Source: Schaalia odontolytica (GTDB taxonomy: Bacteria; Actinomycetota; Actinomycetes; Actinomycetales; Actinomycetaceae). From it: 32,000 nucleotides of DNA. The notes beneath the pieces were generated by a model. The model did no database searches and was not told where the DNA came from. It was given only the letters and a program-made list of their open reading frames with translations. Shown in pieces: positions 4,101-20,054 of this stretch. The stretch spans positions 600,001 to 632,000 of the forward strand of contig NZ_CP040006.1 of assembly GCF_005696695.1 (NCBI RefSeq), written 5' to 3'. Position numbers and translations under genes: made by a program. How positions within the stretch are numbered: position 1 is the stretch's first letter; each line of letters opens with the position of its first letter.

Positions 4101-4590
4101 CAAGGCGGCGGGCGCGACAGATAAGGTCATCACCTACTCCGACGTCATGGGCGCGCTCATGAGCTCGGTGACCAAGATCGTCGACATCATCTCCTGGCTG
4201 CTCATCGCCTTCGTGTCGATCTCTCTCGTGGTCTCCTCGATCATGATCTCGATCATCACCTACATTTCGGTCCTCGAGCGCCGCAAGGAGATCGGCATCC
4301 TGCGCTCAATCGGTGCCTCGAAGGGCGACGTGTCCCGCGTGTTCAACGCCGAGACCGTCATCGAAGGCCTCTTGGCGGGCCTGATCGGCGTGGGCGTCAC
4401 CTACGGGCTGTGTGCGGTTGCAAACGGCATCGCGTACTCCTCGTTCAACGTGGAGAACATTGCCCAGCTCTCGCCGCTCACGGCCCTCACACTCATCGCG
4501 GTGTCCGTCGGCCTCACCGTGATTGCGGGCGTCATCCCGGCCTCGCGTGCTTCGCGCCAGGACCCGGTCGAAGCCCTGCGCTCCGAGTGA
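1180..4590 (+). CDS. Fused ABC transporter ATP-binding / FtsX-type permease protein (MacB-like) with a very large extracytoplasmic domain
   Basis: GTG 1180 follows GAGGATGAAG. The N-terminal ATPase has Walker A GQSGSGKTT, signature SGGQMQR and Walker B LLADEPT. A TM helix lies at about aa 265-290 (SFAGSIGIIGIAAILALA), followed by a ~650-aa ectodomain. The C-terminal FtsX-like 3-TM module contains ERRKEIGILRSIGASKGDV. Total 1136 aa. Confidence 0.9.
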   Translation: MLELKEIVKAYQTANLVQVALNKVSVAFRDNEFVAVLGQSGSGKTTMLNVIGGLDRFQSGDLVIDGISTKDYKARDWDAYRNNRIGFVFQAYNLIPHQSVLANVELALTLSGVSRSERRKRALDALERVGLKDHVNKKPSQMSGGQMQRVAIARALINDPEILLADEPTGALDSKTSVQVMDLLRDVARDRLVIMVTHNPELAHEYATRIVELADGCIVADSDPFVPTAQDRREAKPARRTSMGFLTALSLSANNLMTKKGRTLMTSFAGSIGIIGIAAILALANGTNAYIAKTEEETLGAYPLTIQKTGIDMTAALSVSASDSKDSQPAPDGKVGVSKLRTFADTIRDAKTNDLASLKTYLDNNGGDINTMVNAIEYDYDIVPQIYQSDTSKATVQVSPDQSMKQMEAGFGSGAFSSMMVTNPFYQMPATTSLYTSAYDVVAGSWPSGANQVVLVLDEDGNIPNLFEYTLGLKDHKEFDDLMRQYYQGALGDKKQSGTQSGAQSGASTATYDYSAILGTTFRRVNAFDKYTWDDTYKVWTDRSSDADYMKKLVDGGQQLTISGIVKPNSDKGGALRQGIAYTPALTYQIIEEAAASPIVKAQRAKPDVDVFTGKTFKELADNQKSQSGGFDMSSLFTVDESKLSAAFQIDPSKMQMDLSGLDFSGMDLSGLDFSNLDMSGMDLSNIDLSALAAQSGAQSGMTFDLSGLDFGELSKDLPQLANVDFQTIIRSALADGAVKDGAADYLSAQASQIAQGFQDYAREQIEAGGTTDFATLASAYFSQPEVLEQLRAAVSSDKVVDSDKLAANLTKALGDDPALAQIGTDVSTQVMNAISAQIAAQLGRTLTQGVSAVIGQVMQEAMTNAMTSMMTQLSTAIGDQIGATMEQFATNMSSAFSMDPQAFADAFHSNLDEKSLAALMATMFSTNVPTLETNLRNLGWADIASPSNISIYPKSFADKDKVKAALDAYNADNKAAGATDKVITYSDVMGALMSSVTKIVDIISWLLIAFVSISLVVSSIMISIITYISVLERRKEIGILRSIGASKGDVSRVFNAETVIEGLLAGLIGVGVTYGLCAVANGIAYSSFNVENIAQLSPLTALTLIAVSVGLTVIAGVIPASRASRQDPVEALRSE

Positions 4591-4597
4591 TGCACGT

Positions 4598-4624
4598 GGC
4601 CTCGTCCCACCTCGGGACGAGGCC
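4598..4624 (+). terminator. Hairpin downstream of the ABC transporter gene
   Basis: GGCCTCGTCCC (4598-4608) pairs with GGGACGAGGCC (4614-4624), an 11-bp GC-rich stem with a 5-nt loop, starting 8 nt after the stop. There is no U-tract, which is common in high-GC actinobacteria. Confidence 0.5.
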
Positions 4625-4704
4625 GTGGCGCATCCACAGGGCACGTGCGGCTGCGCTAACCTGGGAGTAACGCTTGTCGTAATAGCCGCGAGGAAAGAGG
4701 AATC

Positions 4705-5289
4705 ATGCCCACTCCCGAGAAGCTTGCCACCGACGCCACCGTCGCCATCATGCTGGCCGACGGCTTCGAAGAGGTCGAGGCCCTGGCCGTCGCCGACGTC
4801 CTGTACCGCGCCGGCGTGCGCTCCGACCTGATCTCCGTGACCGACGCCCGCCACGTGACCAGCTCGCACGGCATCCGCGTCGTCGCCGATCTCATGCTCG
4901 AGGACGTGGACCTGTCCACCTACACCGTCCTCTTCCTGCCCGGCGGCATGCCCGGCACCCTGAACCTGAAGGCCACGCCCGCGATCCAGGCCGAGGTGCT
5001 GCGCCGCTCAGACGAGTCCCAGCCCATCGCAGCGATTTGCGCGGCCCCCTCGATCCTGTCCGAGCTGGGCATCCTCGACGGCCGCCACGCGACCGCGAAC
5101 CCCGCGTTCGTTAAGGCCATCGCTGAGGGTGGCGCGATCGTCCACGAGAACCCGGTCGTCGTCGACGAGCAGATCATCACCAGCCGCGGCGCCGGCACCT
5201 CCCTGGAGCTCGGCCTCGAGATCGTTCGTCTCCTCCTCGGCGACGAGGTCGTTGACGAGGTCGCCCGCGGCGTCGTGCTCGCCCGCTGA
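4705..5289 (+). CDS. DJ-1/PfpI (ThiJ) family protein
   Basis: ATG 4705 follows GGAAAGAGGAATC. The sequence shows FEEVEAL..DVL.RAG, LPGGMPG and the nucleophile-elbow AAICAAP characteristic of DJ-1/YajL-type proteins. 194 aa. Confidence 0.85.
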   Translation: MPTPEKLATDATVAIMLADGFEEVEALAVADVLYRAGVRSDLISVTDARHVTSSHGIRVVADLMLEDVDLSTYTVLFLPGGMPGTLNLKATPAIQAEVLRRSDESQPIAAICAAPSILSELGILDGRHATANPAFVKAIAEGGAIVHENPVVVDEQIITSRGAGTSLELGLEIVRLLLGDEVVDEVARGVVLAR

Positions 5290-5338
5290 CGCGCGCCCGC
5301 CTCGTTCCCGTCCCTCCCCGAAAGGTCACTGCCCTCGC

Positions 5339-6250
5339 ATGAGCCCGCGTAAGCCTCGTCCCTGGCCCGACGCGCCCGCGCCCCTGGCGGCGCCCGTGGT
5401 AGACAACCACACGCACCTGCCCACCCACGTCGGCGAGATCCCCCGGCGCGAGGGCGTGGCGCTCAGCCTCGAGGAACAGCTGGATCGTGCCCGCGAGGTG
5501 GGCGTCACTCGGATGATCTCGAGCGCCTGCGAGCTGCCCGACTTCGATCCGATGATCGAGCTGGCGCGCGCTCACGAGGGCGTGCGCGTCGCGATCGCGA
5601 TCCACCCCAACGATGCGGCGCTGCACGCGGGCTGCGCGGATCCTTCGCCCGACGGTCTGGTCCCCGTTGTGCGTGACTACCACGTGCCCCTCGACGAGGC
5701 CCTGGCCGCCGTCGAGGCTCGGCTGGACGATCCGATGGTCGTCGCGGTGGGGGAGAGCGGCCTGGATTATTTCCGCACCGCCGACCCGGGCCGCGAGGCG
5801 CAGAAGGAATCCTTCCGCGCGCACATCGACATGGCGCAGCGCGCCGGCCTGCCCCTGCAGATCCACGACCGCGACGCCCACGAGGACACCCTCGCGATTC
5901 TCGGCGAGCGCGCGAGCGCGGACCAGCGCATCGTCTTCCACTGCTACTCGGGGGACGCGGCGATGGCCGAGCGCCTCGCCGAGCGCGGATGGTACGCCTC
6001 CTTCGCCGGCCCTATTACCTACCCCGCGAACTCCGACCTGCGCGCCGCGCTCGCGGTCCTTCCGCGCGAGCTCGTCCTGGTCGAGACCGACGCCCCGTAC
6101 CTGACGCCCGTGCCGTGGCGTGGCTGTCCCAACGCCTCGTACGTCATGGCGCACACCGTGCGTTTCATTGCGGATCAGTGGGGCGTCAGCGAGGCGGCGG
6201 CGTGCGACCAGCTGCGGGCGAACACCGAGGCGGTCTACGGCACCTGGTGA
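5339..6250 (+). CDS. tatD: TatD family metal-dependent hydrolase/DNase
   Basis: The internal ATG 5339 is chosen. The 5129 start would overlap DJ-1 and encodes Arg/Ser/Pro junk. The metal-binding N-terminus is VVDNHTHL, with later motifs AVGESGLDY, PLQIHDRDAHEDT, VFHCYSG and VETDAPYL. Its position upstream of an rpfB-like gene matches the mycobacterial arrangement. Confidence 0.85.
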   Translation: MSPRKPRPWPDAPAPLAAPVVDNHTHLPTHVGEIPRREGVALSLEEQLDRAREVGVTRMISSACELPDFDPMIELARAHEGVRVAIAIHPNDAALHAGCADPSPDGLVPVVRDYHVPLDEALAAVEARLDDPMVVAVGESGLDYFRTADPGREAQKESFRAHIDMAQRAGLPLQIHDRDAHEDTLAILGERASADQRIVFHCYSGDAAMAERLAERGWYASFAGPITYPANSDLRAALAVLPRELVLVETDAPYLTPVPWRGCPNASYVMAHTVRFIADQWGVSEAAACDQLRANTEAVYGTW

Positions 6251-6469
6251 GGGTATCTCTCCTGTGATGAGCGCGGGTTATCGGGCTTCGCGCGACCTTT
6301 CTGCGCGCGTTCTCTGACTGGTGAATTGCGTCAAAGTGGTCGCGCGACGGTAACAAATTGGTTACGGTGGGAGTGTCAGTCCGAATTGGCCTGCCCGTCT
6401 GATGCGCCCGCAGTCCGCGGGGATGCGTTGGCGCGGCCCCGAAACGGAACCTACAAAGTCTGGAGACAC

Positions 6470-7630
6470 GTGAGCTTTCAGCCCTCTCGTACAACCGTCA
6501 TTTCCGTCGCAGCCGCGACGGCCCTTGTCGTGGCCGGCACCGCGGCCACTGCCATTGGTACCTCCTATCGCCACGTCACCGTCGAAGTTGACGGCGTGCC
6601 CCACGATGTCTCAGGCTTCTTCACGACCGCCGGCGATGCTCTGCACAGCGCGGGCGTGACCGTCGGCGACCACGACCTCGTCGCCCCCGCCTCCAACCAG
6701 ACCGTCGCGAGCGGTGACACCGTCGTCGTGCGCACCGCGACCGAGTACGACGTGACGGTTGACGGCAACCAGACCACGGCGTGGTCCACGGCCTCGTCGA
6801 TTTCCGGCGTGCTCTCGGCCCTGCCGGCCTCCGCCGCGTCCATGGCGGCCGACCGCTCCTACACCCGCGCCGAGATGCCCGTCGCCGAGGCCGGCCAGAC
6901 CGTCCACGTCGTCGCCGACGGCACCACGACGGACGTCGTCGTCTCCTCCGACGAGGGCACGACCGCGATCCTCGAGAAGGCCGGTGTCAGCGCCGGTCCG
7001 ATCGACCGTGTGACCATGGAGCACAACGGCGGCGAGGCCACCCTGCGCGTTGCGCGCGTCGTGCGTGGCACCGTCTCTTCCACGACCGAGATCCCGTACG
7101 AGACCGAAGAGCGTGAGGACGCCGAGGCCGAAGAGGGTACCGAGAAGACCGTGCAGGAAGGCGTGGCCGGCTCCGAGGTGACCGAGACCTACCAGGAGAC
7201 CATCGACGGCAACGTCACCGTCTCCGCCGTCCTGTCCACGACCCGCACCGAGCCCACCAAGCGCATCGTCTCCAAGGGCACGAAGGCGAAGAAGGCCGAG
7301 GATACCTCGTCCAGCTCGTCGTCCTCGTCCGCTTCTTCGGGCTCCTCCTCGTCTGGTTCGTCTGCTTCTGCTCCCGCCGCCGTCTCTGGCGACGACGCTT
7401 CGATCTGGGCTGCCATCGCCCAGTGCGAGTCCGGCGGCAACCCGTCGATCAACACGGGCAACGGCTACTACGGCATGTACCAGTTCTCTCTGCCGACGTG
7501 GCGTTCCGTGGGCGGCTCCGGCCTGCCCTCCGACGCCTCCGTGGAGGAGCAGACCATGCGTGCGCGCATGCTCCAGCAGCGCTCCGGTTGGGGCCAGTGG
7601 GGCTGCGCCTACAAGCTGGGCCTCGTCTGA
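6470..7630 (+). CDS. rpfB: RpfB-like resuscitation-promoting factor (membrane anchor, DUF348 repeats, G5, Rpf transglycosylase-like domain)
   Basis: GTG 6470 is followed by an anchor segment, TTVISVAAATALVVAGTAATAIG. There are three DUF348-like repeats (VTVEVDGVPHDV, YDVTVDGNQTTA, VHVVADGTTTDV) and a G5-like segment (TEIPYETEE...VAGSEVTETYQETIDG). A poly-Ser linker precedes the C-terminal Rpf catalytic motif IWAAIAQCESGGNPSINTGNGYYGMYQFSLPTW. The start is uncertain (TTG 6326 is the longest option). Confidence 0.85.
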   Translation: MSFQPSRTTVISVAAATALVVAGTAATAIGTSYRHVTVEVDGVPHDVSGFFTTAGDALHSAGVTVGDHDLVAPASNQTVASGDTVVVRTATEYDVTVDGNQTTAWSTASSISGVLSALPASAASMAADRSYTRAEMPVAEAGQTVHVVADGTTTDVVVSSDEGTTAILEKAGVSAGPIDRVTMEHNGGEATLRVARVVRGTVSSTTEIPYETEEREDAEAEEGTEKTVQEGVAGSEVTETYQETIDGNVTVSAVLSTTRTEPTKRIVSKGTKAKKAEDTSSSSSSSSASSGSSSSGSSASAPAAVSGDDASIWAAIAQCESGGNPSINTGNGYYGMYQFSLPTWRSVGGSGLPSDASVEEQTMRARMLQQRSGWGQWGCAYKLGLV

Positions 7631-11109: not shown

Positions 11110-12084
11110 ATGCGTGAAGTGCGCGCCAGTGCGCCCGGAAAAGTCAACCTGACCCTGCGCGTCGGCGCGCCCACGCCCGACGGCTACCACCCCCTCGTCA
11201 CGGTCTTCGAGGCCCTGAACCTGCGCGAAACCGTCACCGTGCGCACCTCCAAGACACCCGGCGTGCGCGTCGAGACGATCGCGTACCTGCCCGACGGCAG
11301 CATCGACGAGGCCACGACCCGCGCCATGGCGGACGTGGACCCGCAGACCCACCTGGCTGTGCGCGCCGCGCGCGTCCTCCAGCGCCTCGCCGCCGCGGGC
11401 CCCTGGGCGTCTACCGCCGCGGGCCTGAGTATCCGCGTCGACAAGCGCGTCCCCGTCGCCGGCGGCATGGCCGGCGGGTCCGCCGACGCGGCCGCCGCCC
11501 TGGTGGCCTGCAACGAGCTGTGGGAGCTGGGCCTGGGCGACGAGCAGCTGCAGGCGATCGGCCGCTCGCTGGGTGCCGACGTCCCCGCCTGCCTGGCGGG
11601 CGGCATCGCGCTGGGAACCGGGCGCGGCGACCACATGAGCGTCCTGCGCGACGGGGACGAGGAGGGCCGCCACCACTGGGTCATGCTCCTGTCCCACGAG
11701 GGCTTGTCCACCCCCGAGGTGTTCCGCGAGTTCGACCGAGTCGACGCGGCGGGTGCGCCCGCCCTCGCCGAACCCGCGCCTGAGGAAGTCGCCGCCCTGT
11801 GCGGGGAACCCGAGGAACTGGGCCACTGCCTCGTCAATGACCTGCAGGCACCCGCCCTGCGCCTGCGCCCCGAGCTGGCCGAGACCATCGGTGCCGCGAA
11901 GGATGCGGGAGCCCTGGCCGTCACGCTGTCCGGATCCGGCCCGACCGTCGCGGCCCTCGTGCGCGACGCCGAGCACGCCCGCGCGCTCGCGGACGCCCTG
12001 AGCGAGGCTCCCACGGTCGCGCGCGCGATCCCCACCCACGGGCCCGCCTGCGGCGCCCGCATCGAATCGACGGAGGCCATCTGA
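11110..12084 (+). CDS. ispE: 4-diphosphocytidyl-2-C-methyl-D-erythritol kinase
   Basis: ATG 11110 follows GGAAGAAGGAAC. It has the N-terminal APGKVNLTLRVG and the GHMP kinase motif PVAGGMAGGSADAAAAL, plus TLSGSGPTV. It follows rsmA as in other actinobacteria. Confidence 0.9.
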   Translation: MREVRASAPGKVNLTLRVGAPTPDGYHPLVTVFEALNLRETVTVRTSKTPGVRVETIAYLPDGSIDEATTRAMADVDPQTHLAVRAARVLQRLAAAGPWASTAAGLSIRVDKRVPVAGGMAGGSADAAAALVACNELWELGLGDEQLQAIGRSLGADVPACLAGGIALGTGRGDHMSVLRDGDEEGRHHWVMLLSHEGLSTPEVFREFDRVDAAGAPALAEPAPEEVAALCGEPEELGHCLVNDLQAPALRLRPELAETIGAAKDAGALAVTLSGSGPTVAALVRDAEHARALADALSEAPTVARAIPTHGPACGARIESTEAI

Positions 12085-14018
12085 TGGCGCACCTGCTCGG
12101 AACCCAGAACGTCGGCGCCCTCGCGGGGTCGCGCAAGCTCCTCGAAGGGGTTACGGTCGGCCTCGACGACGGCAGCCGCGTCGGCATCCTCGGCCCCAAT
12201 GGCGCCGGAAAGTCCACGCTCCTGCGCATTGTCGCCGGCACGCAGGAACCCGACGGGGGAGTGGTGACCCGACGCGACGGCGTGCGCGTCGCCGTCCTCA
12301 CCCAGGCGGACACCCTCAACCCCGAGGACACTGTCATCCAGGCTGTTCACCCCGGCATGGAGGAATACGAGTGGGCCTCCAACCCGGCCGTGCGCGACAT
12401 CCACGCCGGACTCCTCGCTGACATCAACCCCGCCGCCCTCGTCGGCACGCTGTCGGGCGGTCAGCGCCGCCGCGTTGCGCTCGCCCGAGTTCTCGCGGCC
12501 ACCGCCGACATCGTGTGCCTGGACGAGCCCACCAACCACCTCGACGTCGAGGGCGTGGCCTGGCTGGCCGCGCACCTGAACGCCCGCTTCGCCCGCCCCG
12601 GCGCGTCCGGAGCGCTCCTGGCTGTCACCCACGACCGCTGGTTCCTCGACGCCGTGTGCGAGCACATCTGGGAGGTCGTCCCCGGCGTCGACCCGGGCGG
12701 CGACCGTCCGCAGATCGCCGGGCATGTCGAAATCTACGACGGCTCCTACGCCGCCTACACGCTGGCCCGCGCTGAACGCATGCGCCAGGCGGACGTGGCC
12801 GCCGCCAAGCGCGCCAACCTGCTCACCAAGGAGCTCGCGTGGCTGCGCCGCGGGGCGCCCGCCCGCACCTCCAAGCCGAAGTTCCACATCGCCGCCGCCG
12901 AGGCCCTCATCGCCGACGTGCCGCCGCCGCGCGACACCGTCGAGCTGGTGAAGATGGCGACCGCGCGCCTGGGCAAGGACGTCATCGACCTCGAGGACGT
13001 CTCCGTGTCCTTCACGCGCCCCGACGGCTCGCGCCTGGACATCCTCGAGGGCGTCACCTGGCGTCTGGCCCCCGCCGAGCGAGTCGGTATCGTCGGCGTG
13101 AACGGCGCCGGCAAGACGACGATCCTCAACCTGCTGCGCGGCGACCTCGAGCCCACCTCGGGGCGCGTCAAGCGCGGCAAGACCGTCCAGGTTGCGACCC
13201 TCTCCCAGGACACGCACGAGCTCGACGCCCTGGCCGACATGCGCGTCGTCGAGGCCGTCGCCGACGTCGCCCAGACAGTCGTCGTGGACGGCAAGGAGGT
13301 CAGCGCCTCCCAGATGACGGAGCGCATGGGCTTCACGCGCGCCCGCGCCTACACGCGCATCAGCGAGATTTCCGGCGGCGAGCGGCGTCGCCTCCAGCTC
13401 ATGCGCCTGCTCATGAGCCAGCCGAACGTGCTACTCCTCGACGAGCCCACGAACGACCTCGACACTGACACCTTGGCCTCGATGGAGGACCTGCTCGACA
13501 CCTTCCCGGGCACCCTCGTCGTCGTCTCACACGACCGCTACCTCCTCGAGCGCGTCACCGACCACCAAGTCGCCCTCCTCGGCGACGGCCAGATCCGCGC
13601 CCTGCCCGGCGGCGTCGAACAGTACCTGCAGATGCGCGCGTCCGGTGATTTTGGTGCTTTCGGACCGTCTTCTCGCGCCGACGAGGCCGGCTCCGCCTCC
13701 CGCTCCACCGCGCCCTCCGCGGATGCCTCCTCGGGTGAGGAGAGCGCGGGGCAGGGGAGCGCTCGCGGCGGCGTGAGCGACGCTGCGGCGCGGCGCGCGG
13801 CCAAGAAGGAAGTGGCCCGCATCGAACGCAAGTTGGAGCGCTTGCGGGCCGAGGCCTCGAACCTGGAGGCGAAGCTGGAGAAGCTGTCGATCCAGGTGGC
13901 GACGGATCCTGCGGCGGTGTCCGAGCTGACGAAGGTCTCGGCGGCCCACCAGGACATCCTGTCCGAGATGGATGAGCTGGAGGAGGCCTGGCTCGAGGCG
14001 GCGGATTTGCTCGAGTGA
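12084..14018 (+). CDS. ABC-F family ATPase (two ABC cassettes, no membrane domain, C-terminal coiled coil)
   Basis: The start overlaps the ispE stop (TGATG at 12082-12086). Cassette 1 has GPNGAGKST, LSGGQRRRVALA and LDEPTNHLD. Cassette 2 has GVNGAGKTT, ISGGERRRLQL and LLDEPTNDLD. The tail is KKEVARIERKLERLRAEASNLEAKLEKL. Confidence 0.9.
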   Translation: MAHLLGTQNVGALAGSRKLLEGVTVGLDDGSRVGILGPNGAGKSTLLRIVAGTQEPDGGVVTRRDGVRVAVLTQADTLNPEDTVIQAVHPGMEEYEWASNPAVRDIHAGLLADINPAALVGTLSGGQRRRVALARVLAATADIVCLDEPTNHLDVEGVAWLAAHLNARFARPGASGALLAVTHDRWFLDAVCEHIWEVVPGVDPGGDRPQIAGHVEIYDGSYAAYTLARAERMRQADVAAAKRANLLTKELAWLRRGAPARTSKPKFHIAAAEALIADVPPPRDTVELVKMATARLGKDVIDLEDVSVSFTRPDGSRLDILEGVTWRLAPAERVGIVGVNGAGKTTILNLLRGDLEPTSGRVKRGKTVQVATLSQDTHELDALADMRVVEAVADVAQTVVVDGKEVSASQMTERMGFTRARAYTRISEISGGERRRLQLMRLLMSQPNVLLLDEPTNDLDTDTLASMEDLLDTFPGTLVVVSHDRYLLERVTDHQVALLGDGQIRALPGGVEQYLQMRASGDFGAFGPSSRADEAGSASRSTAPSADASSGEESAGQGSARGGVSDAAARRAAKKEVARIERKLERLRAEASNLEAKLEKLSIQVATDPAAVSELTKVSAAHQDILSEMDELEEAWLEAADLLE

Positions 14019-14209
14019 GCGGATCTGTGGGTAGTAGTCGACGGCGGTAAGTGCCTCTAGAAACGCAGCAGTCGTGGCCTCGGTGCCTCGTCCTCAATTC
14101 CTTCCATGCTATCGGAATCTCAAATTCATATTTACAGTGCAAATATTGGTGCGCTGTGTATTCGTTGGTATTTCACGGTTCTTCACTGCGAAAATTTCCG
14201 AGCAACTCT

Positions 14210-14236
14210 TTGACAGTGGTCAGAATCCGCTACTAT
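14210..14236 (+). promoter_or_regulatory. Candidate sigma-70-type promoter for the glycanase gene
   Basis: TTGACA (14210-14215) and TACTAT (14231-14236) lie in an unusually AT-rich 300-bp intergenic region. The 15-nt spacer is shorter than optimal, so this is tentative. Confidence 0.3.
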
Positions 14237-14325
14237 GTGCCCGGGTTCCTTCCAACAAGTGGAACCTAGGAGCGAAGCGGCGCTTCGAGCGCCATTCAGG
14301 GCATGAAAAGAGGCTTGAGAGTCAG

Positions 14326-16323
14326 ATGAAACGCGGACCATTTATCGCCGGAGCAGGCCTGCTCGGCGTCATCGCGCTGGTGCCCGCACTGGTCCCCAGT
14401 GCGGTCGCGGCCGACGACCAGTACGGTGCGACCGTCCCCTACACGCGATACGAGGCCGAGGAGGCGAGCCGATCCGACGGGACGACGCTCGAGCGCTCCG
14501 ACGACATCGAGTCGACGGCCATCGAGGCCTCGGGCCAGTCCTACGTGGCCCTGAACGGCAAGAACTCCTCCGTGGACTTCACCGCGACGACCGCTGCCAA
14601 CGCCCTCGACCTGCGCTTCACCCTGCCGGATCACACCTCCGGTCGTGTCGACGTACGCGTGAACAACGAGACCGTCGCGACCCTCGATCTCTCCTCCGAG
14701 ACAGCCTGGCAGTACGTCGGCGGCGACCATGTGTACGACGAGCCGGGAGACGGCAGGAAGGCGCGCTTCCGTTTCGACGAGGTCCACACCCTCCTGGGCC
14801 GCCAGATCCAGAAGGACGATCATATTCAGATCGTCAAGGTTGGCGACGACCAGAATGCCTACGGCATCGACTTCATTGAGCTCGAGCAGGCTGCGCCCGC
14901 CATCGAGCGCCCCGAAGGCGCCGTGAGCGTGGCCGACTACCAGGGAGCCAAGCCCGGCGACGGCGTCGACGACTCCGACGCGCTCATCTGGGCCATGAAC
15001 CAGGCGGCGGCCTCCTCCAAGACCGTCTACATTCCCGCGGGCACGTGGGAGTTCGGCCGCAAGATCGGCCTGGACCATTCCGGCCTGACCATCCAGGGTG
15101 CGGGCATGTGGCACACCAACGTGCGCTTCACCTCCGACCAGGCTGGCGGCGGCGGTTTCGTCTTCAACCGCGGCGTGGGTGGCGTGACCATGACCGACTT
15201 CTACATGTCCTCGAACCTGAAGTCCCGCTTCGATGAGAAGGCTCAGTACAAGGGCTTCGCGGGTTCCGCCGGCGCGAACACCCGCGTCGCCAACGTGTGG
15301 GTCGAGCACTTCGAGTGTGGCTTCTGGATGGGCGACTACGTGGATGCCAGCCAGATGACCTACACCGACGGCATGGTCATCGAGAACGCGCGTATCCGCA
15401 ACAACTTCGCGGACGGTGTCAACTTCGCGCAGGGAACGGCGAACTCCACGGTTCGCAACTCCTCGGTGCGCGGCAACGGTGACGATGGCCTGGCCTCGTG
15501 GTCGAGCATCGACAAGTCCACCAACAGCCAGGCGCGCATCGCCGAGCACAACTCCTTCGTGGGCAACACTGTCGAACTGGGCTGGCGTGCCTCCGCCATC
15601 GGCCTCTTCGGCGGCAAGTCCCACGTCATCAAGGACAATCTCATCGTCAACAACTTCTCCGGCGCGGGGATTCGCCTGAACACCGTGTTCGACGGTCACA
15701 ACTTCGACCTGAACACGGACGGCGGCATCTCGATCTCGCACAACAAGCTCGTGCGCTCGGGCACCACGAACGACTTCTACGGAAACACGCGCGGCGCGAT
15801 CGACTTCCAGGAAGTGAAGGGCGACATCCGTAACGTCACCGTCTCGGACAACCTCATCGTGCGCCCCTACGCCGAGGAGATCCGCGCGGACTTCGGCCTC
15901 GACGCTTCCGCTCTGTCCCCTCGCGGCATCACGCTGCGCGACAACAAGCGCGACGACGAGGCCGTGGCCACCCAGCAGGAAAAGATCGTCAACCACGTGC
16001 TGGTGGGGGATCAGGTCGTGCGCACCGTCCCCGAGACGGAGAACTACAGCCTCTACTGGTACCAGCGCGACGAGCGTGGCGCTCACGGCACGATCAACCG
16101 CTACTGGGTCTCCAAGGCGGACGGCGTGGCCATCACGCCCGACATGGAGTACTCCGTCGAGGGTGGCAAGCGCGTCTACAACGTGACGCTCGCTGACCTG
16201 CCCCAGTACCTGCCGACGTCGACTGACTTCTCCGGCTCGTACGACTACGTCGCGGATCTCGAGCGCTCGCAGCCGGCCGACGATGGCACGACGATCGTGG
16301 TCCGTTTCTGGTCCGCGAAGTGA
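14326..16323 (+). CDS. Secreted CBM-like + right-handed beta-helix glycoside hydrolase; best guess GH87-type alpha-1,3-glucanase/mycodextranase-like
   Basis: ATG 14326 follows GAGAGTCAG. The signal peptide is MKRGPFIAGAGLLGVIALVPALVPSAVA-AD. An N-terminal YEAEEA... module resembles CBM6/35-like domains. Parallel beta-helix style repeats follow (IENARIRNNFADGVNF, VRNSSVRGNGDDGLASW, VIKDNLIVNNFSGAGIRL, ISISHNKLV, VTVSDNLIV). The 14074 ORF start gives an AT-rich junk leader and is rejected. The exact GH family was not verified. Confidence 0.6.
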   Translation: MKRGPFIAGAGLLGVIALVPALVPSAVAADDQYGATVPYTRYEAEEASRSDGTTLERSDDIESTAIEASGQSYVALNGKNSSVDFTATTAANALDLRFTLPDHTSGRVDVRVNNETVATLDLSSETAWQYVGGDHVYDEPGDGRKARFRFDEVHTLLGRQIQKDDHIQIVKVGDDQNAYGIDFIELEQAAPAIERPEGAVSVADYQGAKPGDGVDDSDALIWAMNQAAASSKTVYIPAGTWEFGRKIGLDHSGLTIQGAGMWHTNVRFTSDQAGGGGFVFNRGVGGVTMTDFYMSSNLKSRFDEKAQYKGFAGSAGANTRVANVWVEHFECGFWMGDYVDASQMTYTDGMVIENARIRNNFADGVNFAQGTANSTVRNSSVRGNGDDGLASWSSIDKSTNSQARIAEHNSFVGNTVELGWRASAIGLFGGKSHVIKDNLIVNNFSGAGIRLNTVFDGHNFDLNTDGGISISHNKLVRSGTTNDFYGNTRGAIDFQEVKGDIRNVTVSDNLIVRPYAEEIRADFGLDASALSPRGITLRDNKRDDEAVATQQEKIVNHVLVGDQVVRTVPETENYSLYWYQRDERGAHGTINRYWVSKADGVAITPDMEYSVEGGKRVYNVTLADLPQYLPTSTDFSGSYDYVADLERSQPADDGTTIVVRFWSAK

Positions 16324-16354
16324 TCGCTTCCTGACTGACTGCTCCGGTCCACAA

Positions 16355-16386
16355 TCGCCCGCGCTGCCCCTCGGTGGCGCGGGCGA
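16355..16386 (+). terminator. Hairpin downstream of the glycanase gene
   Basis: TCGCCCGCGC (16355-16364) pairs with GCGCGGGCGA (16377-16386), a 10-bp stem with a 12-nt loop, 31 nt after the stop. Confidence 0.4.
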
Positions 16387-16507
16387 GGTGCGTCTGTGTC
16401 TGTGCTGCTACCTGGAGAGCGAGGAAAGGTGACCGGCCTCGTGCCTGCTCGTCGCGTCAGCCGGTGCAGCCTACAATGGAGCCGATTGATTGCTCAAGGA
16501 GGGTCCC

Positions 16508-16966
16508 GTGTCATTCTCGGATGTTCCAGACGTTCATGCCCCCGGTTTCCGTGATACCGGTACTATCCGCTTCGTTCCCGACAGTGAGACGGTCCTCGCG
16601 CGCATGGATCGCTCGACGGTCGAGGTCTTCACCTCCTTGGAAGAATACGTCGAATCATACGGTTCCTACGTCGATCGTCTCGGATATCCTACGGGCAAGT
16701 ACTTCTGGCACATCCCCCTCGATCGTGAGGGGCAAGTCTATTACTTCGAGGAGCGAGCCCAAGACATTTTCGCGCTCCACGATCCGATATATGAGTATGA
16801 GATCAAGAGCCTGCCGCCGGGCTTTTGCATCCGAACGGGCATCAATGTTCCCCAGTTTGACCTGCGTGGCGGTGCTCGCCAGGTTCAATTTCTTGCGGGA
16901 GATACGCCCCTGACGGCCATCGAGTGTCTGAAACTGGGGATCCTTGGTGGGAAGGTGGTGCGCTGA
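16508..16966 (+). CDS. Stand-alone TNT (tuberculosis necrotizing toxin-like, DUF4237) domain protein; putative NAD+ glycohydrolase toxin
   Basis: GTG 16508 lies 5 nt after a perfect AAGGAGG. The 152-aa product carries YVDRLGYPTGKYF, EERA, YEYEIKSLP, TGINVPQFDLRGGARQVQF and IECLKLGIL. In order and spacing these match the TNT domain consensus as I remember it. There is no signal peptide or N-terminal delivery domain. About one third of codons end in A/T (53/152 by hand count). Confidence 0.65.
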   Translation: MSFSDVPDVHAPGFRDTGTIRFVPDSETVLARMDRSTVEVFTSLEEYVESYGSYVDRLGYPTGKYFWHIPLDREGQVYYFEERAQDIFALHDPIYEYEIKSLPPGFCIRTGINVPQFDLRGGARQVQFLAGDTPLTAIECLKLGILGGKVVR

Positions 16967-17481
16967 TGTGGGCACAGCCTGAACTCATGGACTTTGCGAT
17001 GAGCGCGGGAGCCCAGGTGCACCTGCGTGAGGGCGATGGTCTGGCGCTCACGTGGGACTGTGGCCGCAGCTGGCGACACGTGTGGAAGACGCATGGGAGC
17101 GACGCGCAGTCCTTCTACGGCGAGAGTGAATACGCCGAGGAGCGTTGGCCTCACTTCGTCAGCAACGACCATGACCTCATGCTCCGGTGGGCGATCGTGC
17201 GTATCGGCAGCGAAGCGCGGCGCCGACTGGAGTGGGCGCCGATTGTTGTACCTTCCGAGGCGGAGGGCCTCGATGGGCGTTGGGGCGTGGAACAACTCAG
17301 CCTCATCACCGGGCGGCTAACGATGGATGGTGTGCCCCTGCCGATGGATATGCGCACCATCTTCCCGGAGCATCATGAACTCAACCAGTTCGCTCGCGTG
17401 GCCCTCATGGACGTTGATGATCTGGTCGCGGCCTATCGCGATCCCTCGGGCGGTGCGCTCCTGGGGCGCTGGGTGCGCTGA
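16966..17481 (+). CDS. Hypothetical protein, candidate cognate immunity/antitoxin of the TNT-domain protein
   Basis: ATG 16966 overlaps the TNT stop (TGATG), with GGAAGG upstream. The 171-aa product is Trp-rich and acidic (MWAQPELMDFAMSAGAQVHLREGDGLALTWDCGRSWRHVWK...). No family was recognised. The role is inferred only from coupling, adjacency and shared low GC3. Confidence 0.5.
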   Translation: MWAQPELMDFAMSAGAQVHLREGDGLALTWDCGRSWRHVWKTHGSDAQSFYGESEYAEERWPHFVSNDHDLMLRWAIVRIGSEARRRLEWAPIVVPSEAEGLDGRWGVEQLSLITGRLTMDGVPLPMDMRTIFPEHHELNQFARVALMDVDDLVAAYRDPSGGALLGRWVR

Positions 17482-17580
17482 GGGACGAGGCCGGAGGGGC
17501 GTGCGGCGCGGGCGATTGCGTGCGTGAGAGCCGATCAGGGTAGGTTTGCCACACCCGCGCAGCGCAGGCTCACCTATCCG

Positions 17581-17618
17581 AATTACGCAAAAGAAATGCC
17601 GCATTTATTTGCGTAATT
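17581..17618. promoter_or_regulatory. 38-nt near-perfect palindrome (operator-like site or hairpin terminator)
   Basis: AATTACGCAAA (17581-17591) is the inverted repeat of TTTGCGTAATT (17608-17618). An inner pair AAATGC (17594-17599) / GCATTT (17601-17606) is centred on 17600. It is AT-rich and lies 100 nt after the cassette stop and 186 nt before the DUF1540 start. Confidence 0.5.
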
Positions 17619-17803
17619 AGTGATGGTGTGAGTGCGAAAATAGCCCCCGAACGACGCGCGAGCACCCTTGGAATTGCAACGAAAACTCGCCACGTTTTGG
17701 ATATGTTGCGAAAAGGCGTATCACTGGAGTCAACAGCGCGGCCAACCCGGTCGCGACCGGCTACAAAGAGGCCCCACGGGGCCACGTTGAAAAGGACACT
17801 CCA

Positions 17804-18079
17804 ATGGCAGATATGCCCCGCATCCTCGACTGCTCCGTCACCGACTGCTCCTACAACAAGGAGAAGAACTGCGGAGCCGCCGCTATCACCGTCGGCTACT
17901 CGACCTCCTGCACGACCTTCATCCCGCTGACCGTCAAGGGCGGCCTTGGCAAGGCTGAGACCTTCGTCGGCGCCTGCCAGAAGGCCGACTGCGCCCACAA
18001 CAACGCCCTCGAGTGCACCGCCGCCTCCATCTCGGTCGGCGCGGGCACCGCGGACTGCCTCTCCTACGAGGCGCGCTGA
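17804..18079 (+). CDS. DUF1540 domain-containing Cys-rich protein (two tandem DUF1540 repeats)
   Basis: ATG 17804 follows AAAAGGACACTCCA. There are two copies of the pattern C-x-V-x-x-C-x-(Y/H)-N-x(4-5)-C-x-A-x-x-I-x-V: CSVTDCSYNKEKNCGAAAITVG...CTTF and CQKADCAHNNALECTAASISVG...ADCLSY. GC3 is very high. Confidence 0.7.
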   Translation: MADMPRILDCSVTDCSYNKEKNCGAAAITVGYSTSCTTFIPLTVKGGLGKAETFVGACQKADCAHNNALECTAASISVGAGTADCLSYEAR

Positions 18080-18092
18080 GTCTGACTCATTA

Positions 18093-18129
18093 ACGAGGCC
18101 GTGGCTGGGAATACCCGCCACGGCCTCGT
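18093..18129. terminator. Bidirectional hairpin terminator between convergent DUF1540 and TetR genes
   Basis: ACGAGGCCGTGGC (18093-18105) pairs with GCCACGGCCTCGT (18117-18129), a 13-bp stem, with inner GGG/CCC pairing. Confidence 0.7.
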
Positions 18130-18149
18130 CGTATCTGCCAAAGATTAAC

Positions 18150-18782
18150 TCAGCGTCCTTCGCCCGAGCGCACCCGCAGCGTGGGGTGGGGGCGCAGGCC
18201 GCGCTGGCCGTTCCAGATGAGGTTGACGACGTGGGCGGCGACCTCGTCCTTCTTCATGCGGCGGTCATCCAGCCACCACTGGCCGACCTGCGCGATGAGG
18301 CCGACGAGCATCTGCGCGTACAGGGGAGACCAGGTGGTGTCGAAGTCCGAGCGCTTGAACTGCTCGGCGATGATGTGCTCGACGCTGGTCGCCACGTCGC
18401 CCATGACCGAGGAGAACGAACCCGCCGTGCGATCTGAGGGGGCGTCGCGCACGAGCACGCGGAAGCCGTCCGTGTTGCGCTCGATGTAGTCGAGCAGACC
18501 CAGGGTCGCGTTCTCCAGGATGAGGCGTGGGCGCTCCGAGGACTCCAGGGATGATTGCAGGGAAGAGATGAGTGCCTGCACCTCGCGGTCGACGACGACC
18601 GCGTACAGGCCTTCCTTGCCCCCGAAGTGCTCGTAGACCACGGGCTTGGAGACCTTCGCCCGGGCGGCGATCTCCTCGACGCTGGTCGCGCCGAAGCCCT
18701 TTTCTGCGAACAGGGAACGTCCCACGGCCACCAGCTGCTCGCGGCGCGCGAAGCCGCTCATTCGTGTCCTCTTCTCAGCCAT
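18150..18782 (-). CDS. TetR/AcrR family transcriptional regulator
   Basis: The N-terminal helix-turn-helix is RREQLVAVGRSLFAEKGFGATSVEEIAARAKVSKPVVYEHFGGKEGLY. 210 aa. A TetR gene next to glmU is also seen in mycobacteria. Confidence 0.9.
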   Translation of the reverse strand: MAEKRTRMSGFARREQLVAVGRSLFAEKGFGATSVEEIAARAKVSKPVVYEHFGGKEGLYAVVVDREVQALISSLQSSLESSERPRLILENATLGLLDYIERNTDGFRVLVRDAPSDRTAGSFSSVMGDVATSVEHIIAEQFKRSDFDTTWSPLYAQMLVGLIAQVGQWWLDDRRMKKDEVAAHVVNLIWNGQRGLRPHPTLRVRSGEGR

Positions 18783-18893: not shown

Positions 18894-18964
18894 TCCGCCT
18901 TGGTGTAACGGCAGCACAGAGGTTTTTGGTGCCTTTAGTCTAGGTTCGAATCCTAGGGGCGGAG
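18894..18964 (+). tRNA. tRNA-Gln (anticodon UUG); CCA not encoded
   Basis: Manual cloverleaf. Acceptor stem TCCGCCT (18894-18900) pairs with GGGCGGA (18957-18963). D stem is GTGT/GCAC. Anticodon stem is GAGGT/GCCTT with loop TT-TTG-GT (anticodon 18926-18928). T stem is CTAGG/CCTAG with T loop TTCGAAT. Discriminator is G at 18964. U1:A72 is typical of tRNA-Gln. Confidence 0.9.
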
Positions 18965-19004
18965 CGACCGGTCCCGATGGGACCGCAGACCCCCGAGGAG
19001 GAAC

Positions 19005-20054
19005 ATGTCTCGCCCCGCCGCCGTCATCGTCCTGGCCGCAGGTCAGGGAACGCGCATGAAATCTGCCCTCCCGAAGGTCGTTCACCCCCTGTCTGGCCTG
19101 TCCATGATCGGACACGCCCTGCGCGCCGCCCACGGCCTCGACCCCGAGCATCTGGTCGCCGTCGTGCGTCACCAGCGCGACGTCGTCGCCGCCGAGATTG
19201 AGCGCGTGCTGCCCAGCGCCATCATCGCCGACCAGGACGAAATCCCCGGCACCGGCCGCGCCGTCCAGTGCGGCCTCGAGGCCCTCGATAAGGCCGTCGA
19301 GCCCGTCTCCGGCACCATTGTCGTCACCTACGGCGACGTCCCCCTCCTGTCCACGGACACCCTGGCCGAGCTGGTCGCCACCCACGAGGGCGCGGGCCAC
19401 GCGGTCACCGTCCTGACCTCGCGCGTCGAGGACCCCACCGGCTACGGACGCATCATCCGTGACACCTCGGGCACGGTCACCGCGATCGTTGAGCAGCGCG
19501 ACGCCACCCCCGAACAGGCCGCGATCAACGAGATCAACGCGGGCATCTATGCCTTCGACGCGGACTTCCTGCGCACGTCCCTGGCTTCCCTGGGCACCGA
19601 CAACGATCAGGGCGAGGTCTACCTGACCGATGTCCTCGCAGCTGCGGCCCCTGCCGGGCGTACCGCGGGCGCCCTCGAGCTCACCGACCACTGGCAGAGC
19701 GCGGGCGCGAACGACCGCGTCCAGCTGGCCGAACTCGGAGCCGAGATGAACCGCCGTCTCTGCGAGGCCCACATGCGTGCCGGCGTGACGATCGTCGACC
19801 CGGCCTCCACCTGGATCGACGTCGACGTGACCGTTGGCGCCGACACCACCATCTACCCCGGCACCTGTCTGCGGGGGACAACCACCGTTGGGACCGGCTG
19901 TGAAATCGGTCCTAGCGCCACGCTGATTGATGCGGAAATTGGGGATCGCAGTGTGGTTCCCACCGCGTGGATCGGTCAGGGCTGCGTTGCAGCCGATACG
20001 ATGGTCACGCCATATAGCACCATCGGCACATTGATCGCGGCGCCTCGCGCCTGA
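19005..20054 (+). CDS. glmU: GlmU-like UDP-N-acetylglucosamine pyrophosphorylase, apparently truncated within the left-handed beta-helix (acetyltransferase) domain
   Basis: The N-terminal uridyltransferase motif is VIVLAAGQGTRMKSALPKVVHPL, and LbH hexapeptide repeats start near VTIVDPASTWIDVDVTVGADTTIYPG. The ORF stops at aa 349, whereas bifunctional GlmU proteins are roughly 450-500 aa. Only 24 nt separate the stop from prs, so the acetyl-CoA/active-site part is not encoded here in any frame. Confidence 0.8.
   Translation: MSRPAAVIVLAAGQGTRMKSALPKVVHPLSGLSMIGHALRAAHGLDPEHLVAVVRHQRDVVAAEIERVLPSAIIADQDEIPGTGRAVQCGLEALDKAVEPVSGTIVVTYGDVPLLSTDTLAELVATHEGAGHAVTVLTSRVEDPTGYGRIIRDTSGTVTAIVEQRDATPEQAAINEINAGIYAFDADFLRTSLASLGTDNDQGEVYLTDVLAAAAPAGRTAGALELTDHWQSAGANDRVQLAELGAEMNRRLCEAHMRAGVTIVDPASTWIDVDVTVGADTTIYPGTCLRGTTTVGTGCEIGPSATLIDAEIGDRSVVPTAWIGQGCVAADTMVTPYSTIGTLIAAPRA

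Follow-up and report, generated by a model that had tools for sequence, protein, structure and literature searches.

In Mycobacterium tuberculosis, the operon esxF-esxE-cpnT-ift encodes CpnT, which carries a C-terminal TNT domain, together with the immunity factor IFT (PMC8092274). Imm61 has been defined as the actinobacterial immunity partner of Ntox40, a toxin domain ('DRxxG, R, Y') equivalent to TNT, and both this pairing in Actinobacteria and its occurrence as solo toxin-immunity cassettes have been catalogued (Zhang et al. 2012, PMC3482391); orphan modules have also been described in type VII secretion (T7SS) loci (PMC7790226). Two kinds of short toxins are relevant here as well, namely CJ488_0988 of Campylobacter jejuni, a 121-aa stand-alone TNT-domain protein encoded in a type VI secretion (T6SS) variable region (PMC8285248), and the 'fragmented' NADase toxins of Streptococcus suis, which have no YeeF delivery domain, bear a conserved N-terminal marker and are exported with the aid of a conserved C-terminal region of the immunity protein (PMC12558993). 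Here we describe a cassette of two plus-strand genes, ORF1 (16508-16966) and ORF2 (16966-17481), in a 32,000-nucleotide stretch of the chromosome of Schaalia odontolytica (contig NZ_CP040006.1, positions 600,001 to 632,000; the whole stretch is hereafter the window). We consider it probable that this is a solo toxin-immunity cassette of the TNT (Ntox40)/IFT (Imm61) polymorphic-toxin family, kept in T7SS (Esx) islands by oral Actinomycetaceae. An original prediction, made from the letters of the window, had viewed the pair as a new stand-alone toxin-antitoxin (TA) or abortive-infection module unconnected to secretion, and had been aware of no characterised stand-alone TNT module; the latter statement is at odds with the solo Ntox40-Imm61 cassettes of Actinobacteria catalogued in 2012 (PMC3482391).

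Compared with CpnT-TNT/IFT (Rv3902c; 4QLP), both proteins of the cassette appear to be homologous, the immunity gene lies directly after the toxin gene, and the NAD+-site residues are the same except that H792 is replaced by Tyr95. In relatives, the full-length islands also resemble the cpnT operon, in that small helical genes are joined by a toxin ending in a TNT domain and by an IFT-like gene. Unlike CpnT, ORF1 is the core domain (152 aa) without a CpnT-like N-terminal secretion/channel domain, and its targets are likely to be bacteria or epibionts rather than macrophages. With the solo and orphan cassettes, the S. odontolytica pair shares the presence of the toxin domain only, the toxin-then-immunity order, the foreign composition, the position downstream of a full-length toxin in relatives, and the duplicated immunity genes and gene fragments around the cassette. 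It differs from orphan cassettes in that no homology handle is present and that a ribosome-binding site, a -10-like box and an N-terminal peptide of its own are conserved; moreover, its clade is stably solo and subject to strong purifying selection, and this window contains no full-length toxin.

The MSE-ExT T7SSb effectors of S. suis are likewise short NADase toxins without a long delivery domain, with a conserved N-terminal sequence and an immunity partner, but they come from another phylum and another type of T7SS, and MSE is modular, being found on 13 toxin clades, whereas the ORF1 peptide was found on TNT only. CJ488_0988 is similar to ORF1 as a stand-alone minimal TNT ORF that keeps the Arg/Arg/Gln residues and lies in a toxin/immunity variable region; unlike ORF1, it is T6SS-linked, belongs to a Gram-negative host, has no reported IFT-like partner and carries Phe in place of TNT Tyr765, which ORF1 keeps as Tyr. 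The NAD+-targeting modules RES-Xre and MbcT-MbcA are two-gene, cytoplasmic systems in which an inhibitor restrains an NAD+-degrading enzyme; their toxin folds (RES and DUF1918-type) are unrelated to TNT, and their antitoxins have DNA-binding or other dedicated domains. The cassette shares with these modules and with aRES the two-gene cytoplasmic layout of an inhibitor and an NAD+-degrading enzyme (here a candidate one), and searches with Pfam, NCBIfam and PADLOC gave no sequence or profile match between the ORFs of the window and any of the three. The TNT domain, the IFT/Imm61 family, their actinobacterial pairing, solo cassettes and stand-alone TNT ORFs in toxin variable regions are already known, and the novelty reported here is modest: the family assignment of ORF2, a defined insertion, and evidence of the solo clade as an expressed, selected unit rather than a silent spare.

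A TNT-like toxin candidate and its IFT/Imm61-like partner

The 152-aa product of ORF1 is a candidate minimal NAD+ glycohydrolase of the TNT/Ntox40 family that consists of core residues 40-149 and a clade-specific 39-aa N-terminal peptide. A phmmer search of PDB sequences aligned residues 40-144 with the TNT chain of M. tuberculosis (4qlp_B, E 1.6e-9). The match to Pfam TNT (PF14021; E 4.8e-4) scores 21 bits, under the gathering score of 27, and in this respect is weaker than the original prediction implied; its TNT call itself is upheld by the 4qlp_B match, the predicted fold and the orthologues. One of these, in locus L017, exceeds the PF14021 threshold with 33.8 bits, and the ORF1 homologues (n = 39) are nearly all 145-150 aa long, most of them with a precomputed PF14021 annotation. 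In the phmmer alignment, R57, Y65, R83 and Q125 of ORF1 correspond to TNT R757, Y765, R780 and Q822, which are cited as NAD+ pocket residues (PMC8285248); R83 and Q125 are found in every sequence of an alignment of 24 family members, and R57 and Y65 in nearly every one. The position of TNT H792, one of the two residues changed in the detoxified mutant H792N/Q822K (PMC8092274), is Tyr95 in ORF1. The AlphaFold2 model of ORF1 has a mean pLDDT of 63, with a confident core and with the first 32 residues predicted to be disordered and not confidently modelled. Its top PDB match in Foldseek is again 4qlp_B (E 5e-8, TM 0.61, 117 columns, 28% identity), followed by fungal TNT-type NADases, including the Aspergillus fumigatus NADase. 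The peptide motifs quoted in the original prediction are all found in ORF1 in the order given there, and, of the checks that it proposed, the structural match to TNT and the alignment of the Arg/Gln positions came out in its favour. Collectively, sequence and model indicate that ORF1 is homologous to TNT, and the conserved pocket residues suggest that it may have NADase activity.

The assignment of ORF2 took a less direct route. Searches of Pfam, NCBIfam and PADLOC gave nothing usable, with no Pfam match at E <= 1, including Imm61 (PF15598); a match to thiocyanate hydrolase, at 12 bits, was discarded as chance. Only six close homologues were found, and even the L017 orthologue reaches just E 0.03 against Pfam Imm61. 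Because the profile built from ORF2 only had no PDB match, the link to IFT was made via the neighbouring 166-aa immunity family and a fold search. In relatives, the immunity gene that follows the full-length TNT toxin encodes 165-172 aa, and the family represented by its 166-aa form aligns with the ORF2 family over 140 columns (hhalign 95.5%, E 1.6e-8). A joint profile of the two families matches IFT (4qlp_A) with E 1.6e-6 over 142 of 176 residues, as well as Rv3902c (4o6g), nearly over the full length. Furthermore, 33 of the 40 members of the ORF2-seeded alignment A3, mostly relatives of 175-211 aa, match Pfam Imm61 (best E 1.7e-6), and in a Foldseek search with the ORF2 model the sole matches below E 0.5 were 4o6g and 4qlp_A (probability 1.0, TM 0.54, about 170 columns, about 12-13% identity). 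On these profiles and models ORF2, for which the original prediction recognised no family, appears to be distantly homologous to the immunity factor of TNT, IFT/Rv3902c (Pfam Imm61); by analogy with IFT, it would inhibit ORF1 by binding.

The two genes are strictly coupled. The stop codon of ORF1 (TGA, 16964-16966) overlaps the ATG of ORF2 (16966-16968), and the resulting TGATG at 16964-16968 couples translation of the 171-aa IFT/Imm61-like protein to that of ORF1. All 26 related loci first fetched have such an overlap, as TGATG or TAATG, and 24 of them also keep the toxin ORF at full length; the overlap likewise occurs in 76 of 80 metagenome loci (the best 80, retrieved with the N-terminal peptide of ORF1 alone as the query); this co-occurrence sustains the earlier proposal of ORF2 as the cognate inhibitor. 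The maximal open frame of ORF1 comprises 158 codons, with the toxin domain alone in it and the immunity gene directly downstream. A Shine-Dalgarno sequence AAGGAGG (16496-16502, plus strand) precedes the GTG start codon at 16508 with a 5-nt spacer, and a -10-like hexamer TACAAT (16472-16477, plus strand) lies 30 nt upstream of the start codon; these signals and the overlap are all present as originally described. AAGGAGG, AAGGAA or AGGAGG is found before the start codon in nearly all related loci that keep the toxin ORF at full length. The scan of 16250-17850 for a canonical sigma-70 promoter (-35 plus -10) returned 0 sites and no -35 element, and the TACAAT hexamer by itself is not significant. 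Nevertheless, a -10-like TAnAnT hexamer occurs at the same 30-nt distance from the start in three diverged clades that are 60-66% identical and occupy different chromosomal sites, the equivalents being TATAAT in L001 and TAGACT in L010/L011.

A two-gene unit with a conserved ribosome-binding site, -10-like box and stop/start overlap is also what would favour an alternative that we regard as unlikely, namely that the two genes form an autonomous module for NAD+ depletion inside the cell, of the type II TA/abortive-infection kind and with its own promoter, in which ORF2 would keep ORF1 inactive until phage, an epibiont or stress freed the NADase and so caused arrest or death. NAD+-depleting TA and defence systems of other folds do exist, such as the RES-domain defence system aRES. 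Against this alternative, neither ORF matches any PADLOC model, and Pfam and NCBIfam revealed no DNA-binding domain, whether helix-turn-helix, ribbon-helix-helix or other, in ORF2.

The composition of the pair sets it apart from its surroundings. Codons ending in A or T account for 53 of 152 in ORF1 (35%), exactly the number once counted by hand, and for 41 of 171 in ORF2 (24%), compared with 7-16% in the eight flanking genes, and the G+C content at third codon positions (GC3) is 0.66 in ORF1 and 0.74 in ORF2 as opposed to 0.85-0.93 in the flanking genes. Together with the discrete 1.13-kb insertion described below, this contrast bears out the view that the pair is foreign in composition.

T7SS islands of relatives and the insertion site

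A scan of a genome collection, analysed by panel tblastn and Pfam search, yielded 20 loci with the cassette, all of them in Actinomycetaceae. In 12 of the 20, the cassette is located immediately downstream of a toxin with a T7SS signal and a TNT domain and of the IFT-like immunity gene of that toxin; in two further loci, on contigs cut short upstream, the end of a T7SS/TNT toxin, or else its immunity gene, is seen. Many of these T7SS-toxin-linked loci occupy the same ABC-F/TetR chromosomal site as the cassette in the window. In L012-L025, the interval between ABC-F and DUF1540/tetR/glmU/prs contains island genes all on one strand, in the order of three small helical genes, a toxin of about 600 aa, a 166-aa IFT-like gene, and the solo 150-aa TNT gene with the ORF2 homologue; the 3' part holds extra immunity copies and ORF2 fragments, and often a glucanase gene. 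In the toxin of about 600 aa, the N-terminus is formed by a T7SS_signal domain (PF21725, E 1e-20) and the C-terminus by a TNT domain (E 4e-15). The cassette also adjoins a T7SS toxin in L032 and L033, with the same island order, and it lies beside a convergent TNT toxin of 944-999 aa in L001-L006. In L029-L031, it is found in an island whose toxin combines the T7SS signal with an ADP-ribosyltransferase domain and has a 99-aa neighbour with a weak WXG100 mark. This mark is seen only in the L029 and L030 homologues of the small upstream genes; the 99-aa and 113-aa products upstream of the full-length toxin in L017 gave no significant PDB or Pfam match.

This layout, a full-length toxin accompanied by solo cassettes, is as described for polymorphic toxin systems. 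The Esx system of S. odontolytica is functional, and genes for candidate substrates lie outside its core cluster (PMC13622651). The T7SS-island context of 12 of the 20 genome loci contradicts the notion of a new module unconnected to secretion; in the survey of related genomes suggested with that notion, the two genes do co-occur elsewhere, mostly inside T7SS islands. Should the cassette nonetheless be an intracellular NAD+-depletion module, the island context would reflect its evolutionary origin only, a reading we hold to be improbable. Most occurrences are within T7SS toxin islands, secreted polymorphic toxins and the corresponding immunity proteins are what defines both protein families, the genes around the cassette have housekeeping rather than defence functions, and tblastn with ORF1 found no match in 50,697 phage or 72,556 plasmid records. 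With the PADLOC, phage and plasmid searches all empty, a TA or abortive-infection role of the cassette is without positive support.

Several observations on the island toxins are worth recording. In the TNT toxins of 944-999 aa (e.g., L001 7670-10669), a linker of about 400 residues with Gly/His/Ser/Asp repeats lies between the T7SS signal and TNT domains; its length differs between samples, and assemblies split the toxin gene there. The toxins in L029 (6912-10460) and L030 (6619-10119), with T7SS_signal and ADPrib_exo_Tox domains, are 1166-1182 aa long and adjoin the solo TNT cassette and arrays of at least five small immunity-like genes. Two assemblies labelled 'Xylanimonas cellulosilytica 352_XCEL' (L008) and 'Sanguibacter keddieii 250_SKED' (L015) contain a Schaalia-type locus with flanking proteins 92-100% identical to those of the window, and their species labels look wrong. 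In L027 (2274-3653), the predicted 459-aa protein P0168 fuses two IFT/Imm61-like domains to a C-terminal TNT domain 42% identical to ORF1, within an array TNT174 / fusion / Imm168. This protein may be a genuine autoinhibited NADase, or else the product of read-through in a contig whose coverage is low (about 5). As a predicted Imm-Imm-TNT fusion, P0168 is counted among the points in favour of an intracellular module.

The site at which the cassette entered the chromosome can be defined in the window. Just after the alpha-1,3-glucanase gene lies a GC-rich hairpin on the plus strand, a 10-nt inverted repeat with 100% complementary arms at 16355-16364 and 16377-16386. An 11-nt direct repeat, GGCGCGGGCGA, has its left copy at 16376-16386 and a 100% identical right copy at 17505-17515, with a spacing of 1129. 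Because window segments 16000-16386 and 17505-18200 are contiguous in L012, L020, L021 and L025 (93-96% identity, 10-nt overlap), the cassette is a 1,129-nt insertion (16387-17515, plus strand, including the right repeat copy) into the hairpin's 3' arm. These four loci have empty sites, in which the hairpin is whole and uninterrupted and GGCGCGGGCGA is found as a single copy; the inserted cassette is not in the collinear glucanase-DUF1540 interval of relatives. The GC content is 0.56-0.62 in the insert and 0.65-0.71 in the flanks. In L009, a cassette of the same type is found directly after ABC-F, and homology between the window and L009 cassettes begins 3 nt before the TACAAT hexamer; evidently, the cassette moves within the ABC-F/tetR hotspot. 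A 14-nt inverted repeat near the insert ends (16433-16446 / 17481-17494) was given no weight, since 1.2 kb contains eight such pairs, this one included. Movement as a discrete 1.13-kb insertion with an 11-nt flanking repeat would also be in keeping with an autonomous TA module.

Under the solo toxin-immunity cassette explanation, ORF1 would be made in the cytoplasm as an NAD+ glycohydrolase, and ORF2, translated from the overlapping start, would bind it one-to-one and block the NAD+ site, as IFT does with the TNT of M. tuberculosis; ORF2 would also protect the cell from a matching TNT-type toxin delivered by neighbours. In this strain, the 1.13-kb unit entered the hairpin after the glucanase gene on its own, in the variable stretch between the ABC-F and TetR genes, where relatives carry a complete toxin island. 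Its selected role would then be interbacterial, comprising immunity and a toxin that either serves as a reserve or leaves the cell through a T7SS whose genes lie elsewhere.

Features atypical of an orphan cassette

A number of findings weigh against this explanation. First, no full-length toxin, WXG-like gene or T7SS gene was found in the 32-kb window, nor, in line with the original prediction, any signal peptide, delivery domain or secretion gene, and two lineages have no T7SS toxin near the cassette in the 3 to 8 kb of flanks examined: the window type (the window and L007-L009) and the A. graevenitzii type. In the latter, 69 metagenome loci all have the cassette at a single fixed position, with a Fic-family gene beside it. 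Second, the homology of ORF1 to full-length toxins comprises core residues 40-149 only, the first 39 residues being unrelated; in an exhaustive phmmer search of 1.84 billion cluster representatives, all relatives at least 44% identical to ORF1 were at most 219 aa long (133-219 aa), and long toxins with C-terminal TNT domains appeared from about 42% downwards. Third, no DNA homology handle links the solo cassette to the full-length gene, as there are no direct repeats of at least 20 nt in L017:4500-9300, and a conserved ribosome-binding site and -10-like box belong to the cassette itself. Fourth, the strength of purifying selection on the toxin, detailed below, is unexplained by a silent spare part. 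Finally, as concerns ORF2, its model is of low confidence (pLDDT 57), and the profile from ORF2 only found no IFT match among PDB sequences by hmmsearch and just a weak one by hhalign (55%, E 1.2e-4, C-terminal 85 columns); the IFT assignment is therefore transitive and structural.

As a side note on the A. graevenitzii locus, the cassette neighbours in L011 are a Fic/DOC-family protein (6793-7563) and a UvrA-like double-ABC ATPase (4015-6684), with remnants of ISL3 transposases nearby.

The N-terminal peptide specific to the solo clade includes the invariant residues M33, D34 and R35, and adjacent VLAR and ST residues that are nearly invariant. Its conservation could be accounted for if ORF1 were an exported weapon, that is, a minimal T7SS substrate without a long helical delivery domain that is recognised by a T7SS encoded elsewhere via this peptide and/or ORF2 or small helical partners, which we judge to be quite unlikely. 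There is a precedent in the 'fragmented' NADase toxins of S. suis, which are exported by a non-neighbouring EssC (PMC12558993), the Esx system of S. odontolytica is active (PMC13622651), and purifying selection on the toxin would fit such a role. However, the precedent concerns the T7SSb of Firmicutes and not an actinobacterial Esx system, the window has no WXG-like partner gene, and the first 32 residues of ORF1 are predicted to be disordered rather than to form a helical bundle. Moreover, the peptide is not modular: no other toxin domain was found on it in the best 80 metagenome loci, of which 77 have a complete TNT ORF of 149-152 aa and three a cut or truncated copy, and a modular secretion marker of the kind represented by MSE of S. 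suis is thereby ruled out. A 1,225-aa protein (P0176) that matched residues 11-50 in 11 stretches proved to be an unrelated repeat protein, and the match spurious.

Both genes are under purifying selection. Between clades, the median pairwise dN/dS is about 0.11 for ORF1 and for ORF2, and between the window and its closest relatives, L007-L009, it is 0.13-0.26 for ORF1 and 0.10-0.15 for ORF2; in the A. graevenitzii population, the toxin has a pN/pS of 0.083 and the immunity gene one of 0.153. Although clades differ to saturation at synonymous sites, length, start codon, ribosome-binding site, catalytic residues and stop/start overlap have all been kept. It is thus very improbable that a toxin island was lost here and left the cassette as a non-functional relic in which decay is still to come. 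A relic would agree with the absence of the full-length toxin from this strain and with the few loci (L025, L026, L036, L041) whose toxin copy is truncated or frameshifted, but not with the preservation of length, signals, catalytic residues and overlap in the face of synonymous saturation, nor with dN/dS of about 0.1 for both genes, and the cassette is an insertion at a site of its own rather than a deletion remnant. Strong selection on the toxin even in the two lineages without an adjacent T7SS toxin (pN/pS 0.083) counts in favour of an intracellular TA module. That the cassette is an autonomous, self-expressed mobile unit used by its carrier as an NAD+-depletion switch, for example against phage or Saccharibacteria epibionts, seems to us a minor possibility, and the solo toxin-immunity cassette of T7SS islands is the explanation that we prefer.

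Hotspot neighbourhood and implications

The window is a segment of an actinobacterial chromosome with 67% G+C, in which the gene order is tatD, two rpf-like genes, ksgA, ispE, ABC-F, a secreted alpha-1,3-glucanase, ORF1, ORF2, DUF1540, tetR, tRNA-Gln, a glmU-like gene and prs. The neighbours of the cassette are housekeeping genes, with no defence genes among them, and the proteins flanking it are 97-100% identical to their counterparts in assemblies of the S. odontolytica group. Judging from window positions 12084-18782 and L007-L025, the interval from ABC-F to DUF1540/tetR is a hypervariable hotspot in the Schaalia group that contains, depending on the strain, a varying mix of T7SS toxin island, alpha-1,3-glucanase gene and solo cassette; a tRNA-Gln gene (18894-18965) is located near it.

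The alpha-1,3-glucanase (14074-16323) is a secreted, mutanase-like protein with CatAgl_D1/D2 and beta-helix domains that may be relevant to oral biofilm glucan. Its presence varies by strain: the gene is missing from the hotspot in L009, L013 and L018, and in several strains whose flanking genes are 95-100% identical it shows 74-83% identity. Upstream of the DUF1540 gene, at 17581-17618, there is a perfect, A+T-rich 11-nt inverted repeat, AATTACGCAAA ... TTTGCGTAATT, with a 16-nt spacer, in a flank that is 90-95% identical in relatives; it matched no Rfam family and could be an operator, e.g., for the divergent TetR. The GlmU-like ORF (19005-20054) encodes just 349 aa, with a nucleotidyltransferase domain and a few hexapeptide repeats, and stops 25 nt before prs; this short form is common to all relatives. 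At the other end of the window (1180-4590), a 1,136-aa fusion protein combines ABC ATPase and FtsX-type permease domains with pentapeptide repeats.

The cassette adds a well-defined actinobacterial TNT-IFT pair, at the level of homology given above, to the few known outside M. tuberculosis, assigns a family to 171-aa proteins that had lacked annotation, and shows that type VII toxin islands have a hotspot in the ABC-F/TetR interval of oral Schaalia and related genomes. Of wider interest is a delivery-less toxin with its own expression signals that is under strong purifying selection and persists in lineages without an adjacent secreted toxin. Because genetic tools are available for S. odontolytica and its Esx system has been demonstrated, in defence against Saccharibacteria (PMC13622651), immunity only, an exported mini-toxin and an intracellular suicide switch can be distinguished directly in this organism. 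If the reading as an intracellular switch were true, the cassette would be the first TNT-fold member of the TA/abortive-infection class, recruited from a secreted polymorphic-toxin system.

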